From sequence record NC_052658.1: DNA of 64,000 bases. One strand, 5' to 3'. This DNA is from Escherichia phage nepoznato. Below the pieces are notes generated by a model, which saw nothing but the letters and a program-made list of their open reading frames with translations, searched no databases and was not told where the DNA came from. Below, in pieces: positions 1 through 49,500 of this stretch (position 1 is its first letter; the number at the start of each line of letters is the position of its first letter). The position numbers were made by a program, and so were the translations under genes.

Positions 1-225
1 CTCATGCCAACATAGCGACAAGGTGGGCCACTTGATTATAAATCACACAAACACTTATTTATCAATGGTTTGGCAACTTCATCATATGACGGAACATTGT
101 CAACTGATCCCGCTCATGACAAGCAGACTATTATTTATATGAGAATGATTATTATTTAAACGTTTATTAACATAAAAACTAAAATAAATCAAGATTATTC
201 TGATTTTATTTACGTTTAAGAGAAG

Positions 226-425
226 GTGCTCAACATCCTACCGGATCGCCGTTGGCAATCCTGCGGATATTTACGCCCCCATGATTAAGGTTTATCTCTT
301 TTCTTAGTGCTCAACATATCGCGTAGCGATAGTATTCGCCCCCGTGATATTTGCTCTTCTCTTAGTGCTCAACATTCCCGCCTGTGGCGGTAACATTTCG
401 CCCCCAAAATTATTGACTTTTATTC
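226..425. repeat. Three tandem direct repeats of about 60-70 bp, each with boxes GTGCTCAACAT and TTCGCCCCC flanking a variable short palindrome
   Basis: Copies start near 232, 312 and 364. Confidence 0.7.
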
Positions 426-779: not shown

Positions 780-1000
780 CTATTTTGCTAATAGTTATTA
801 TTTTAATGGTTTCGTTTGTTATTGTTCGTTAGTTGGTTGTTTTGTCGTGTTATCGTTATCTTGCTTAGTATTCATCATGGTTTGATTGTTTGTCGTTATC
901 AATCATCTTGCTATTATTCCTTTGATTATGATTAGTTTGCTTATTGTTTTATGTTGTTTGTTGGTTAGTTGTTGCGAACTATTATCAACATTATAATTAT
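780..1000. repeat. GT-rich low-complexity tract with strong strand compositional asymmetry
   Basis: Iterated GTT/TTG short motifs. Confidence 0.5.
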
Positions 1001-1249
1001 GCGCTTATATTGCATAGATAATCATGGGTAGATGATAATGGTTATCATTGCACTAGAAAGGAGGTAAAAGGGTGTTTTTGATGGTTTGTTGTTGGTTGTT
1101 GATCGATTTTAACCGCTCTAAATGGCTCTCTAACAGCCTGTAACCCTGGGAGGTATGGTTATTCGTTTGCTGGTTGATTAGCTCGATACCGCGATTTATT
1201 CAGTTTTGTTCTGTGTCGGTTTTTCATAGGCGGAAGCTATCAATATTGT

Positions 1250-8996: not shown

Positions 8997-9060
8997 AAAT
9001 AATGAGCGGCACCATTGCCGCCCTACGTGGTAAATATTATGCCGCCACCTGGCGAACGTC
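8997..9060 (-). promoter_or_regulatory. Early promoter (TTGACG-N-TAATAT) plus leader stem-loop
   Basis: Near-identical to element at 7470-7532. Confidence 0.6.
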
Positions 9061-9171
9061 AATCACTTTTTCAATCTTTTTTATTTTCTTTTTGCTTGCT
9101 ATATATAAAAGAAAGGGCTATCATCTTTCTACCGCGCCAACCTGGGCGCACATCAAAGAAAGGGCGATACC

Positions 9172-9438
9172 ATGACAAATACTACATTACACCTTATGCA
9201 CTCATTGGGCTGGCAAGGCGGCACGGTGCACCAGGTAGCAAGCGCAACGGGCTTAAAGGTTGAAACCGTTCTCAACCTATCAGATTATAAGGTCGAGGAT
9301 AGTTATCAATTACAAAGTTACACGGGCGGTTTTACCTGGGCGCGTGAAGGTGGGAAAGAAAGCAATATACCACATTGGGGAAAAGGTGATATTCATTTTT
9401 GGCTAGGTGTCCTGACCTGGCAAGAAAACAAAAAATAA
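9172..9438 (+). CDS. Small helix-turn-helix protein, putative transcriptional regulator (88 aa)
   Basis: Segment GGTVHQVASATGLKVETVLNLS resembles an HTH. Confidence 0.45.
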   Translation: MTNTTLHLMHSLGWQGGTVHQVASATGLKVETVLNLSDYKVEDSYQLQSYTGGFTWAREGGKESNIPHWGKGDIHFWLGVLTWQENKK

Positions 9439-9442
9439 TCTT

Positions 9443-9471
9443 GACAAGCCCAGGGATCGGGCTTATACTGT
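9443..9471 (+). promoter_or_regulatory. TTGACA-N17-TATACT promoter whose spacer contains hairpin AAGCCC/GGGCTT; promoter versus weak terminator is ambiguous
   Basis: Direct reading. Confidence 0.4.
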
Positions 9472-9690
9472 TTTACATACAGAAGAGGAAGCGCCACCCC
9501 CACGGCGTAAAGGCGGGGCTAACATACCAGGGGCACTGGTTGGAAGGTTGATCGCCGGTAGGCTGGGCGCTATATATTTGTAAAGAAATGTAAAGATAAA
9601 ATAATCGCTTGCTTTCCTGGCTGGATCTGTTATTCTTATTACATGGCGAGGGGACACGGGAGCGCGAGACAAACACCGCCCCTGCGCGTC
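9472..9690 (+). ncRNA. Candidate structured non-coding RNA: GC-rich island with nested complementary segments and no plausible ORF
   Basis: Compositional outlier downstream of the promoter-like element. Confidence 0.25.
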
Positions 9691-9694
9691 ATTC

Positions 9695-9800
9695 TCTAAA
9701 TGAGAATGATTATCATTTACTTTATTAAATAAGAATCAATCTCATTTATAAACCTAAATGCGAATCATTATCATTTGCATTTCCACATGAGAACTCTTCT
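9695..9800. repeat. Four iterated palindromic sites of about 19 bp (AATGATTATCATT; ATGAGAA-CTC-TTCTCAT), Fur-box-like
   Basis: Direct reading; related motifs at 141-160, 455-475, 1014-1045. Confidence 0.5.
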
Positions 9801-9825
9801 CATTCCCATCTGCATAAATTTTTGT

Positions 9826-10030
9826 AAACTTTAAATTTTGCTTTTGTACTTTCATTTTTGTAAAAGCAAAAAAACTTTAAATACTGTGGGCGCGCAAAAT
9901 TTTTAAAATTTTCCTTGACTTTTGAGTTTTGTTTTGTATCTGACATTTTAAGATAATTTTCCTAAACTTTAAATTTTGGTTTTCAACTTTCACTTTTGTA
10001 AATTCTTAAAAAGTTTAAATAATTTGAGGG
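9826..10030. repeat. Two copies of a direct repeat of about 56 bp (AAACTTTAAATTTTG...TTTTGTAAA...TTTAAATA)
   Basis: Copies at about 9826-9885 and 9961-10018. Confidence 0.6.
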
Positions 10031-10162
10031 ATTTTTGAGATAATGGATAGTGGGAATTTGATATAACCTTTAATCTTATTAGTAGACCTTCAGGAACCCA
10101 CCTAGATCGAATCCTGGTGATGCAAACTGAAAAAGACAAGGGTTTGTATAGGACAAAATAAT

Positions 10163-10198
10163 AGGCTCTCTACGGTGCTGTAGGAGCCTTATTTCTGT
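10163..10198. terminator. Bidirectional hairpin terminator (AGGCTC...GAGCCT) with T-rich flanks on both strands
   Basis: Direct reading. Confidence 0.5.
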
Positions 10199-10244
10199 GC
10201 TACAAAGTGACACCTTTGTTCTAAAAATGAAAAAAGTTAAAATA

Positions 10245-10787
10245 TCACAAATATCGTCTTTGCGGTATTTTGTCTGGGAAAAGTATTTCGATCAGTTTGT
10301 TATGATATTTACCTAAAAGATTTTGCCCTTTCCAGTTGACCGGATTTAGCACCCCTGGTTCATACATCCCCATTCCAATTCCGTAAACCTTATCGTAGGG
10401 GCTTGCTTCAACAAACGTTTTGTATTGGTAAAGGTGTAAGTCTGCATACAAATCTGGATTCTGTACATATTTCAAGCATAAACCTCGCATAACAATACGC
10501 TCACGGTTCTCTTCCCATACGTTGTTATCAAAATCCGACACTGCCCTACCCATACGTTTGTAATAAGCTTGGATCTTCTCATCTTTCCGTATCAAACTAT
10601 GAGTCAGAATAGCCTGTGCAGTGTTGTGGTCATTAAAAAGCAAAGCTTTACGCCACATCATATATTGTTCGACACAATTAAATGTTTGATTGTAACCTGG
10701 TTCGGTTTCTGTAAAGGGTGCAATATACCAATTACTAAACACATCTTTATGTGAAAAGAAGAATACATAATCATCAGTTATTCGCAT
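10245..10787 (-). CDS. NADAR (YbiA-like, DUF1768) family protein
   Basis: Recalled YbiA blocks FSNF/FSNW, EHYFQAQKF-like, MGR, and LVEASP-D-WG-G-like C-terminal half. Confidence 0.8.
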   Translation of the reverse strand: MRITDDYVFFFSHKDVFSNWYIAPFTETEPGYNQTFNCVEQYMMWRKALLFNDHNTAQAILTHSLIRKDEKIQAYYKRMGRAVSDFDNNVWEENRERIVMRGLCLKYVQNPDLYADLHLYQYKTFVEASPYDKVYGIGMGMYEPGVLNPVNWKGQNLLGKYHNKLIEILFPDKIPQRRYL

Positions 10788-11341: not shown

Positions 11342-12519
11342 GTTTCCTCCTGTAATGTTCCACCATAAAGTTTATAAATGTTTTGTATTGATGCCATGCA
11401 AGATAACTCCGCTGTCTCTGTGTAGCCATCTGGCATAGCATATTTGCTCACTGCTTCCGTGTGAAGGACACGCTTACAACGCTTTTCTGCATCTTTGCAT
11501 TGCTTCACAGTAGGGAAGTGCCACACTTGGCCCTGTTTCATAGTAAACACATTACGACTATTTTGTTCTTTGATACGGCGATTACTATTATTAGCAATAC
11601 CAAACTTCAGTGCACAGATAATATCTTGCTCATCGTAAATATAATTAATGTAGGCTTGTTGTTGATTTTTGTTAGCACACTGCGGACAACCTTGTCCTAT
11701 GTTTAAAAGGTTGTTTGCAGTTCCTTTTTGTTCCCCATGACTCTTACATACATATTTAAACTTACCTATAGAAGATGGTTTGGTAATCCATCCTATCCAA
11801 ACATACCCTTTCTTTTCTATTTTCTTTCTTACTTTATACGTAATCTGTTCCGCTGTATACCTATAAGATGCAGAGCAACGGCAGGGTAAGTGTCCATATT
11901 TAAGATTGCTACGCGTCATATAAAACTTACCATCACATAGTCCAGCTTTAACATATTCATCATGAGAACAAACAGGACACTGAACCATCCATACCGGATC
12001 ACACCCTTTACGTTCCCCCGTGTTGGTGAAAATAGTGCCTTCCTTAAACTTCCCTGTAGAAAAGAAATCTGCAATATGTTGATCGTCGGGTATTGTTTGT
12101 GACCTCCTTGTGTTCTCATACCTACATATAAGACAACCACTGCCATGTTTAAAACTATCAAAACTACATGTATTCCATTCATGACCATACCTACAACGTA
12201 GCATCATTTTCGTACGCGCACCTTTAAACGGTTCTACGATACCTATGATGGTAATCCCCTTAGCTTCCGCTATTGGTTTACATTCAGTAAGGTATGTTTT
12301 TAAATCTTTAATTTGACCTGCACACATAGGACAACCACTACCACGTTTAAAACTGTTAATACTTGTAGTATCCCATTTATAACCACAATGACACAACAAA
12401 TCAAGTTTTGTATTAACCCCTTTCCATTCTCCCGTCCATCCTAAGATTTGGATTTGCTTACTCTCTGCTATGGGTTGACACTCTTCTTTATATTGTTCCC
12501 ATGATTTTGGTGCTGCCAT
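11335..12519 (-). CDS. Multi-zinc-ribbon protein with C-terminal T5orf172/GIY-YIG-like domain (putative DNA-binding/nuclease)
   Basis: At least four repeats of a Cys-containing module ending GSGCPxC; C-terminal YIYDEQ...KFGIANN. Confidence 0.5.
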   Translation of the reverse strand: MAAPKSWEQYKEECQPIAESKQIQILGWTGEWKGVNTKLDLLCHCGYKWDTTSINSFKRGSGCPMCAGQIKDLKTYLTECKPIAEAKGITIIGIVEPFKGARTKMMLRCRYGHEWNTCSFDSFKHGSGCLICRYENTRRSQTIPDDQHIADFFSTGKFKEGTIFTNTGERKGCDPVWMVQCPVCSHDEYVKAGLCDGKFYMTRSNLKYGHLPCRCSASYRYTAEQITYKVRKKIEKKGYVWIGWITKPSSIGKFKYVCKSHGEQKGTANNLLNIGQGCPQCANKNQQQAYINYIYDEQDIICALKFGIANNSNRRIKEQNSRNVFTMKQGQVWHFPTVKQCKDAEKRCKRVLHTEAVSKYAMPDGYTETAELSCMASIQNIYKLYGGTLQEETC

Positions 12520-46587: not shown

Positions 46588-49500
46588 TGAGTAAGTTTAC
46601 ATGGGATATTGAAGCAAACGGATTGTTGAATAATGATACTATTGATTATTTAGCTAGTCCTTATCGTCTCAAAGACACATTTCAAATGCACTGTATTGTC
46701 TTAGAGAACCATGAAACAGGAGAAATAGTAGCTTTCCACGATGGCCCTAAATACATTTTTGATGGTCGTCCTTATGAAGAGTCAGATGATAAATATACAT
46801 ATGTTCTTAAAGAATATGTGGCGCAAGATTACACACATTTTCAACTAAAAGATTTCCCAGATTTTATTAATCATGAAGGTTATTTTAAAGACAAGCCTGA
46901 ATATTTGGTTGAAATGGCTGTGGCACACAACGGTATCAACTATGACTGGTTGGCTACAAAACTGTTTTATGGATTAGATTACAGTGTTAAATATAACACG
47001 TGGGGTAAAAGCAAGGTAAAACTTATTGACTCCTTAATTTTGAGTAAAGTGTTAAACCCAGATCGAAAGATTGAGGGCAAATCAGGACATAGTTTGGCAG
47101 CACTTTCTCGAAAGGCAGGCGGGGATGTAAAAATAGATTTCCGTAAAGAGATTCCAGAAGAAGATCGATTTAAGACTTTTGCTGCGGATATGCTTTATTA
47201 CTGTATCTATGATAACAAAGCCAACACAAGTGTATATAATTACCTCATGGAAGAATGGGGTGATTATGATAAATGGGAAGGTCCATTTGAACTTGAACAA
47301 CGTGTAGCAGACATTATCACGCGCCAGGAACACCGTGGGTTTGCTTTTAACATGAAGCAAGCAGAAGAGAACCTTGCTTTTTTGGATGCAGAAATGGAAC
47401 GTCTTCGTTTACTCGTTGAGCCTATTTTGCCACCTAAACCAGCAACAAAAGGTTATCTTAAAGCTTTTATTCCGCCTAAATTGCAAATTAAAAAGAACCT
47501 CGAACCAACTAACCATATGATCAATTTTGCTAAAAAACATGATGGTCATTTGGAAGAGAGGGATGGCGATTGGTGGTTAGTTATGTTGGGGAAAGAGTGG
47601 AAACTGCCAGTTGCAGCAGATGAGCCTTTGTGTGATCCTAATATCCCTGCAACATTGAACGATACAACCCATATTAAAAACTGGCTTGTAGGATTAGGTT
47701 GGGTACCGTCTGAATATAAAGATAAAGACTTGACTCTTAAATCTGGCACCAAGATTAAAAAGAGTGAGGAAGAACTTCAGAAAGGTATTCGAGCTTACAT
47801 TGAGCAAACTCTATCTTCTAATTTTTGTCAGGATCGTTGTGATCATCTGGAGTGCACACCGGAAACCTTGGAAAGGAAGATTCAAGAGCGTATAGCAAAA
47901 GGTAAAGGTCGCGGTCTTAAAGTATTGACTAACCCATGTTTTACCAAAGGTCAGGAAAAAGAAATTTGTCCTAACCTGCAAGCTTTGGGTGAGAAATTTC
48001 CTTATGCTACACAGATTGTAGAATACTTAACGTATAAACACCGTAGGAACTCTATTTTAGGTGGTGGTGCCGATTGGGAAGAAGACGAAGAAGATCAAGA
48101 ATACAACAAAGGTTTCTTGGCAGCAGTTCGTGCAGATGGACGTATACCTACGCCAGCGGCTACATGCGATGCAGCAACCTCTCGTATGAAGCATAGGTCT
48201 GTAGCCAATATTCCTCGTGTTACCTCTTTGTTTGGATGGCAGATGCGTAACCTGTTTGGTGTAGAGGTTCCTAAATACTTCCAGATTGGTTATGACTTTG
48301 ATTCATTAGAGGCGAAGATTGAGTCGCATTATACGTGGAGATATGATAATCCTGATCATGCTTACTGTAATGCACTTCTGTTAGAAAAACCAAACGATGT
48401 GCATACTATGATGGCAAAACATATTACTGATATTATTGGACGTAAGTTTGAACGTGGTCCTGCTAAGAGCGTTAAATACGGTTGTGTACCTGTAGATAAT
48501 ACGGAAGTGTTAACAAGAACGGGTTGGAAGAAACGTAAAGATCTTTTTGTAGGGGATGAAGTTTTATCTTATAATACTCACACCGCTCTTTACGAATATA
48601 CCCCTATTCTTAAGCTGTGGGACTATAACGATGCAGAAGTTGTCTCTCTCGGTAACAAGTGGTTCAAAGTAGAAGTTACTAACGATCATATGTGGATTAA
48701 CGCACAGAGAAAAACTATGCGATCAGATGGTAACAATGTTAAGTATATGCAAGTGGAGCGTAGATCTACAGAGGATTTAAACTCGGAGTCAAACATAATT
48801 GCAGCAGGGCGATCTGGTGTGGTGTCTACTCTAACAGTGGAAGAAGGTCGTTTCTTAGGCTGGCTTCTTTCGGATGGCTACTATAAGTGGTCTGGCAAAG
48901 CCAGAAATAAAGTAATGGGTATTACAGTCACGGTAGATCAAGATGAGAAAAAATTCTTAGAAGAAGCACGTGAGGCTGTGGGAGATATCTTCACATTTGA
49001 CGAGTATGTATCTGGAACGATGCATTCATTACGTCCTAATAAGAGTCAGTTTAGGGAATTTTTGACTAAATGTGGCGTTGAAGTGGGTCAAAATAAGCAC
49101 GAAGTGGACTGGTCTACATTAATTGCTAATCAAGGTCAAGCTGTGTTGGAAGCATTCTTAGAGGCATTCTGGATGGCAGATGGTCATAAGCGTCCAAACG
49201 GCAGTCTTGTTATCCGTCAAAAGAAAGGTAAGATTAGCGACGCTGTTTCTTTGGCTATCAATATGACAGGTAATATTGCGTATGGTTCTGTTCAAAAAGA
49301 TGGCATGTTAACGTTGGCAATCAATAACGGACAAACTATTTCAGGACAGAGGTTGACAAAAGCTTTTTCACGAGTAACAGATGTATTCTGTATCTCAACC
49401 AAGAATGAATCTTTTGTTATGCGTCAGAATGGTTTTATCACGTTGACAGGTAACTGCACGTACGGCGCTCAAGCAGACAAGGTTGCTAAAACAATTGGTA

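Follow-up and report, generated by a model that had tools for sequence, protein, structure and literature searches.

The DNA analysed here, a window of 64,000 nucleotides from Escherichia phage nepoznato (NC_052658.1), derives from a phAPEC8-like coliphage of the genus Phapecoctavirus (subfamily Stephanstirmvirinae). Some 9.8 kb from the left end (~6.5% of the genome) it carries an array of palindromes that resemble binding sites of Fur, an iron-sensing host protein. The array lies inside a gap of ~800 bp without credible open reading frames, bordered on one side by a small plus-strand gene (9172-9438) and on the other by the terminator of a minus-strand gene block that starts at 10245. GC content in the array region is 0.26, and the surrounding sequence is 97-98% identical to that of many Phapecoctavirus genomes, such as phAPEC8, ESCO5 and anhysbys. 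Between the left end and the array are ~7.8 kb of small minus-strand genes, which we take to be early genes because of their position, their size and the per-gene promoters annotated in phAPEC8. The features of the locus and of the left non-coding region are collected in Table 1.

Table 1. Features at the array and in the left non-coding region; bit scores refer to the Fur matrix derived from E. coli.
Feature	Position	Strand	Remarks
Fur-box-like site in the direct terminal repeat, TATGAGAATGATTATTATT	138..156		20.6 bits
Weaker Fur-like site, left non-coding region	784..802		14.8 bits
Fur-box-like site, left non-coding region, GATGATAATGGTTATCATT	1031..1049		18.5 bits
Strong sigma-70 promoter P1 (TTGACA, 17-nt spacer, TATACT)	9441..9469	+	11/12 hexamer positions
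Promoter P2 (TTGCTT, 16-nt spacer, TATTCT)	9609..9636	+	hexamers kept, spacer variable, in five phage genera
Conserved GC-rich element between P2 and the array	9644..9688	+	alignment and consensus fold, weak covariation
Fur-box-like palindrome 1, AATGAGAATGATTATCATT	9699..9717		25.2 bits
Fur-box-like palindrome 2, AATAAGAATCAATCTCATT	9728..9746		18.1 bits
Fur-box-like palindrome 3 with overlapping site at +6	9757..9781 (9757, 9763)		22.6 and 14.8 bits
Fur-box-like palindrome 4, weakest, CATGAGAACTCTTCTCATT	9786..9804		12.5 bits; in 29-bp register
AT-rich direct repeats with AAACTTTAAATA-type motifs, right of the array	9816..10026		repeat families D2 and D3; GC 0.25

Two promoters point toward the array. 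The hexamers of P1 are kept in the phages PHB05, KP13-26, CR3 and Murica, while P2, which falls under the threshold of a simple promoter scan, places the array at roughly +50 to +160 of its transcript. No plus-strand open reading frame was found downstream of P1, P2 or the array. About 100 nt of GC-rich sequence after P1 (window 9441-9570) are nearly invariant from Phapecoctavirus to Certrevirus, with neither an open reading frame nor an Rfam match, and may represent a phage non-coding RNA not yet described, or else a signal in the DNA. The second GC-rich element, after P2, contains the invariant GAGACAAACACCG (9666-9678) as well as CCCTGCGC (9680-9687), and GAGACAAWCACCG is also invariant in it. 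An Rfam search of 9000-10400 with E-values up to 1 gave chance matches only, and in consensus folding of the P1 and P2 transcripts from four to six phages covariation was too sparse to call a structure. In Vequintavirus, P2 has Fur-like boxes on both sides, ~137 bp apart (11453 and 11590). To the right of the array, the AAACTTTAAATA-type motif is confined to the direct repeats, all four of its matches in the window falling within 9826-10021. An unrelated viral contig has similar motifs, ACTTTATAAAG, interspersed among its Fur-like boxes (11421-11669). The adjoining promoter, repeats and AT-rich region would suit an iteron-type or transcription-activated origin; a search for a neighbouring initiator gene gave none, and GC skew tracks gene orientation here without a switch. 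The literature on this phage group contains no mapped replication origin.

The Fur matrix was derived de novo by palindrome-constrained expectation-maximisation from many seeds. Its training set consisted solely of 12 Fur-regulated promoter regions of E. coli K-12 (fepA-fes, fepD-entS, fepB-entC, fhuA, fiu, fhuE, cirA, exbB, fecA, fecI, fhuF-yjjZ and ryhB), with no phage sites. It converged on AATGATAATnATTATCATT, with a variable half-site position of T 0.59, G 0.25 and A 0.16, and the best site of each training promoter scored 15-22.7 bits, except that of fecA (7.5 bits). Its specificity was borne out on 27 kb of E. coli DNA, where all matches of at least 12 bits lay in Fur-regulated intergenic regions. 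In published gel shifts Fur bound 13 of 13 tested predicted sites of 12-26 bits (PMC2189734). The half-sites GAGAAT/ATTCTC, as seen in the phage, occur in the operators of fecI, ryhB, fhuA, exbB, entC and fhuE, with fecI TATGAGAATGGTTATCATT and ryhB AATAATAATCATTCTCATT being real operators of this type.

Scanned with this matrix, the array gave scores of 12.5-25.2 bits. The four 19-bp palindromes, which the first-pass annotation had placed at 9695-9800, were recovered both by the scan and by a repeat search, and are spaced by exactly 29 bp (9699, 9728, 9757 and 9786); the repeat search found three copies in a 29/29-bp register (9696, 9725 and 9754), each with a palindrome of ~21 bp, and a fourth unit at 9783. 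Together the four main sites span 106 bp, and one pair (9757 and 9763) overlaps at an offset of 6 bp, which is a hallmark of Fur clusters (PMC2189734). The array therefore combines two properties of a Fur operator cluster, namely a matrix score at operator level and clustering with a 6-bp overlap. Palindrome 1 is identical to the fecI operator at 17 of 19 positions; its agreement with the Fur consensus GATAATGATAATCATTATC, put earlier at about 15 of 19, is a fair figure, since it amounts to 14/19 when the register starts at 9696 and to 16/19 when it starts at 9702. The orthologue of palindrome 2 in phage anhysbys has one base changed and scores 22.0 bits. When 5,426 E. coli genomes were searched by BLAST with the array, only three weak matches came up, all to the same canonical Fur box sequence. 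This Fur box, which matches site 1, lies in the one copy examined 44 nt upstream of a DAHP synthase gene and beside iroN, the salmochelin receptor gene.

The sites are concentrated far beyond what composition would produce. Eight matches of at least 14 bits occur in the window, against 0.35 expected from Markov simulations. For the local AT-rich stretch of 801 bp, 2000 sequences were simulated, and not one equalled the observed count or the observed maximum. When the consensus of the four sites was used instead, seven matches of at least 14/18 were found in the 64 kb, all of them in the array or the left non-coding region. Besides the sites in these two places, the window has only two matches of at least 10 bits (26408 and 57218).

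Related copies had also been proposed in the left non-coding region, and here the outcome is mixed: those at 138-156 and 1031-1049 are strong by the matrix, while that at 455-473 is weak, with 15/19 agreement to the consensus yet fewer than 10 bits. The site at 784-802 is additional to those listed earlier. The first of these sites belongs to the genome end. The terminal repeat of the Phapecoctavirus phage Schickermooser has a length of 328 bp (Korf et al.), and window position 1 lies 99 nt to the right of the point where its record ends, so that the repeat corresponds to window -98 to 229. The window thus opens 99 nt into the direct terminal repeat, and its first ~229 bases are repeat sequence. 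The repeat holds two strong boxes, the one at 138-156 and AATGAGAATAATTATCATT, which lies just outside the window, 59-77 nt from the physical end. Three GTGCTCAACAT repeats stand at 226, 307 and 365, each with a CGCCCCC motif behind it, and the inner edge of the terminal repeat (~229) falls at the first of them; this stretch (window 1-380) is a possible recognition region for terminase.

Arrays of the same kind were found at the homologous locus in Justusliebigvirus, in a Klebsiella phage of the Stephanstirmvirinae, in Certrevirus and in Vequintavirus, and are kept across genera that are only 70-80% identical or unalignable elsewhere. PHB05, a relative of the Justusliebigvirus phage BME3, has five main boxes and six matrix matches at the internal locus, and Klebsiella phage KP13-26, Cronobacter phage CR3 and Murica have three to four main boxes each (~12-26 bits), often with the 29-bp spacing. 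Terminal repeats carry boxes as well: the 342-bp repeat of BME3 contains them at 53 and 248, and the 458-bp repeat of Vequintavirus EdH4 has matrix matches at 10, 126 and 144, with the internal array at 11453-11637. In the 13 kb of EdH4 that were scanned, no further match of at least 11 bits was present beyond repeat and array. Box number and exact position vary between genera and the motif stays constant, which is how a binding-site cluster under selection behaves. The record of the Vequintavirus phage phiWec189 starts exactly at a Fur-like box and breaks off halfway through the following one, which suggested that the boxes might be terminase cut sites. This idea was rejected because the experimentally determined ends of EdH4 and Schickermooser lie 10-11 kb away. 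The terminal overlap of 147 nt in phiWec189 (1-147 at the start, 2356-2502 of the fetched end piece) probably stems from assembly; genuine ends or nicks at the boxes would be a second, less likely reading of that record.

Distant blastn searches with the array region also matched T5-like siphoviruses. In T5 (AY587007) the matches are copies 1-4 of direct repeat C and palindromes E-I at 9468-9637 (Repeat Region 3), that is, the injection-stop region, directly after the DnaA boxes and directly before the 7.9% nick. All matches of at least 17 bits in the first 50 kb of T5 fall within 9473-9636, with a maximum of 25.1 bits, and the segment of palindrome 3 is identical to T5 9575-9603 at 28 of 29 positions. 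The same kind of array is present in Gostya9. Proteins encoded by window 1-17 kb and T5 1-14 kb had no similarity, and the array is the only significant DNA similarity between the two. An array shared with T5 and Gostya9 by a phage without similar proteins means that a shared binder must be host-encoded.

The parallel with T5 extends to the surroundings of the array. The units here are of the direct repeat C and palindrome E-I type with the same motif, the distance from the left end is alike (9.5 kb or 7.9% in T5, ~9.8 kb or ~6.5% here), both arrays come after a block of small early genes, and in both a GC-rich hairpin with CCCTGCGC adjoins the array and group-specific direct repeats follow. 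There are differences too. The T5 hairpin stands on the other side of its array, the T5 array is contained in a terminal repeat of ~10 kb whereas the present phage has a repeat of 328 bp that does not include the array, and the proteins of the two phages are non-homologous. Neither T5-type DnaA boxes (TTWTNCACA with at most one mismatch, searched in 9000-10400), which T5 has as pairs in its inverted repeats D' and C', nor the T5 DR-D repeats (TGTGCAAATCCGAC with at most three mismatches, searched near the array) were found. To our knowledge, two-step DNA transfer is known for T5-like phages only. As side observations, nick 1 of T5 is situated ~25 nt right of the T5 array, and CCCTGCGC, 11 nt left of the first box here, equals the 8-mer at all three annotated major nicks of T5; as it is not conserved in KP13-26, CR3 or Murica, we note this match as a curiosity. 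The sequence elements of the T5 injection stop have been catalogued since 1987 and their binding protein was never assigned. A comparative study by Davison found them conserved and unexplained and proposed DnaA as the stop factor, and the stop mechanism is still called "poorly understood" in a 2026 PNAS paper. Neither the Davison study nor a 2026 T5 preprint mentions Fur or iron, and we found no paper that links Fur to the non-coding regions of T5, rV5 or phAPEC8, or to cos.

Boxes of this type also stand beside the packaging sites of lambdoid phages. One of the genes concerned, nohA, is presumably the Nu1-like gene of prophage Qin. In prophage DLP12 a 22.8-bit box (793-811 of the fetched locus) immediately precedes the lambda-type cos sequence, and in lambda GATGATAATCATTATCACT (18.6 bits, 48450-48468) ends 34 nt from the right cohesive end. 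Binding of Fur at a site 233 bp upstream of nohA has been observed both in vivo and in gel shifts, and a 25-bit Fur cluster has been predicted upstream of nohB (PMC2189734). These lambdoid sites (nohA of Qin, nohB/nohD of DLP12 and lambda) resemble the terminal-repeat boxes of the present phage in being strong boxes in non-coding DNA by a genome end or packaging site; they are single boxes, unlike the periodic array of four described here, and published binding data are confined to the nohA site. No paper discussing Fur boxes beside the cos sites of lambda or DLP12 was found.

The exact 18-base pattern AATGAGAATNATTATCATT is present in at least 120 viral metagenome contigs with a GC content of 21-53%. 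Among the matches listed, 85 of 120 contigs have two or more clustered sites and 39 have three or more, with up to ten; in 36 of these 39 clusters no open frame of at least 100 aa runs across the sites. The commonest site offsets among the matches listed are 6 and 29 bp, and at the non-seed sites GAGAAT is about as frequent as GATAAT and the centre base is G or C. At 25 loci among the matches listed a large terminase gene lies within ~2 kb, with the array usually upstream, and two unrelated families of small open reading frames without a Pfam match stand between array and terL, which we take to be candidate small terminase subunits. In two T7-type contigs the array follows the large terminase gene, ~1.9 kb downstream, and comes within a few hundred nucleotides of a contig end. 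The densest array among the matches listed has ten Fur-matrix matches in 216 bp (locus 2536-2751) of a 62-kb viral contig, for which a GC content of ~21% was measured on the fetched locus. In two cultured marine phages, a pelagiphage and a vibriophage, that are TerL relatives of the array contigs, the stretches examined contained no Fur-like cluster (a single 11.1-bit match in the vibriophage), so the trait is sporadic. That the motif recurs in the terminal repeats of three myovirus genera, next to lambda cos and ahead of terminase genes in many uncultured phages suggests wide co-option of a host iron sensor at the ends of phage genomes.

The best-supported reading of the array is that the palindromes are putative Fur operators, which host Fur would occupy when iron is sufficient. 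It builds on sequence agreement with Fur operators, on the grouping of the sites in a cluster and on the return of such arrays at an equivalent place in unrelated phage families; Fur binding itself, binding as the selected function and a roadblock or gate mechanism are what we infer from these. As in the E. coli Fur clusters at fecI, fhuF, entC-fepB and ryhB (PMC2189734), the same 19-bp inverted repeat recurs several times per locus, sites overlap 6 bp apart and the variants GAGAAT and GCAAAT are tolerated, while the scores of the array are equal or higher. In contrast to these clusters, which are contiguous runs of hexamers, the phage sites are separate, spaced by 29 bp and set in non-coding DNA of a virulent phage, and the array does not lie over the -35/-10 region of an iron-related gene or the promoter of an iron-responsive gene, as a classical Fur operator does. 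A roadblock or gate is favoured because the array stands just downstream of two promoters without open reading frames, where the early-gene block ends. With ample iron in the cell, a stretch of ~110 bp just downstream of P1 and P2 would be covered by Fur-Fe2+ dimers; P1 and P2 are host-type promoters that would transcribe only non-coding, GC-rich conserved sequence toward the AT-rich repeat region. The array could then act in cis as a Fur-dependent gate, a roadblock or silencer on rightward transcription and on any DNA transaction driven by it, placed at the border between the first ~9.8 kb, with terminal repeat and small early genes, and the rest of the genome. A high-affinity operator cluster for host Fur acting as such a gate is in our view the best explanation, and somewhat likelier to be right than wrong. 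Several points count against a Fur reading, among them the position of the array away from a classical Fur promoter and the lack of a Fur-like cluster in the stretches examined of the two marine phages. The viral sites are not plain copies of host operators, since among the matches listed GAGAAT is about as common as GATAAT and a G/C centre is preferred, and another protein with overlapping specificity is possible; moreover, T5 destroys host DNA early, so that some Fur-related benefits would be absent there.

Fur could also be bound to a different end, if the thousands of strong sites on replicating genomes titrated it and thereby de-repressed the iron-uptake regulon, with boxes mattering by number only and the iron gained serving phage enzymes such as ribonucleotide reductase. 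Site strength at or above that of host operators, several sites per genome in any large non-coding regions and, among the matches listed, environmental viral contigs with arrays of up to 10 sites would suit such a sponge, but there are merely ~8-10 sites per genome, a position conserved relative to promoters, hairpin and genome end is seen across families and would not be needed, and de-repression of a host whose DNA is degraded within minutes would be pointless in T5; we consider titration a live alternative, though an unlikely one. The resemblance to Fur boxes might instead be incidental, the boxes serving as iterons or operators of some protein of the phage itself (a replication initiator, a small terminase subunit or an early repressor) and the combination of promoters, AT-rich repeats and boxes forming a transcription-activated origin or a packaging signal. 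The order of promoter, repeats and AT-rich region with more direct repeats is what this predicts, each group has a second repeat family by its array (DR-D in T5, CGATCGAGACCC in CR3 and the AAACTTTAAATA type here), and many metagenomic arrays stand upstream of terS/terL. The motif is, however, common to phages without shared proteins and with at least two different candidate small terminase subunits, a skew switch is absent, and what is conserved is sequence rather than symmetry alone, precisely where the Fur matrix is informative, which makes a phage protein an improbable explanation. The product of the neighbouring gene fares no better as a candidate. This 88-aa protein, which the first-pass annotation had called an HTH protein, has no Pfam match and falls in the PHROG family phrog_19316, to which no function is assigned. 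It does not occur in the Vequintavirinae loci examined (CR3, Murica and EdH4) or in T5-like phages, all of which bear arrays. It is not the common binder of the arrays, and the array has no adjacent, co-occurring DNA-binding gene of the kind that accompanies phage repressor operators. A phage-encoded common binder is altogether unlikely, because the array-bearing phages share no proteins and the 88-aa protein lacks a recognised DNA-binding domain and a presence in these loci. Of the two alternatives given at the outset, a phage operator array and host Fur binding, the second is thus strongly supported in silico and the first, as an operator of the 88-aa protein, is unsupported.

An effect at the RNA level would need no binding protein at all. 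The palindromes in the P2 transcript would then form AU-rich hairpins, weak serial terminators that define a short non-coding RNA, in line with the position of the array downstream of P2 and with a terminator scan in which 9688-9710 stands out as a stem with a T-rich tail behind it. Such hairpins would often be mismatched, GAGAAT standing opposite GATAAT in half-sites that are not complementary; the sequence is conserved and does not covary, and identical boxes are found in terminal repeats and by cos without an evident promoter. We regard this as very improbable. Functionless palindromes arising by chance are what a region with so low a GC content might offer, but the failure of every composition-matched simulation to reach the observed count and the conservation of the array across otherwise divergent genera leave chance a negligible probability.

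Fur boxes are textbook elements; what appears to be new are periodic arrays of them in the non-coding control regions of virulent phages. Beyond the operator cluster and gate at this locus, Fur-box arrays might be a general cis element of tailed phages, situated at genome ends and at the edge of the segment that enters first and involved among other things in the control of entry, although we hold this extension to be quite doubtful. The internal array would then be part of the injection-stop signal in T5-like, rV5-like and phAPEC8-like phages, with a coat of Fur halting host RNA polymerase from rightward P1/P2-like promoters, or DNA translocation, until early proteins release it. If this were true, commitment to infection would be tied to the iron state of the host. 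Wide use of an iron-sensing host protein at phage genome ends could be relevant to phage therapy where infection sites are short of iron, and to the ecology of phages in iron-poor water. Should palindromes E-I be Fur operators, the question of what binds the T5 stop region becomes directly testable.

A separate observation concerns the phage groups with internal arrays. Daunorubicin blocks infection by T5-like phages after first-step transfer, and in the BASEL collection sensitivity to it is common to Demerecviridae and Vequintavirinae, two groups that carry such an array (PMC13250531).
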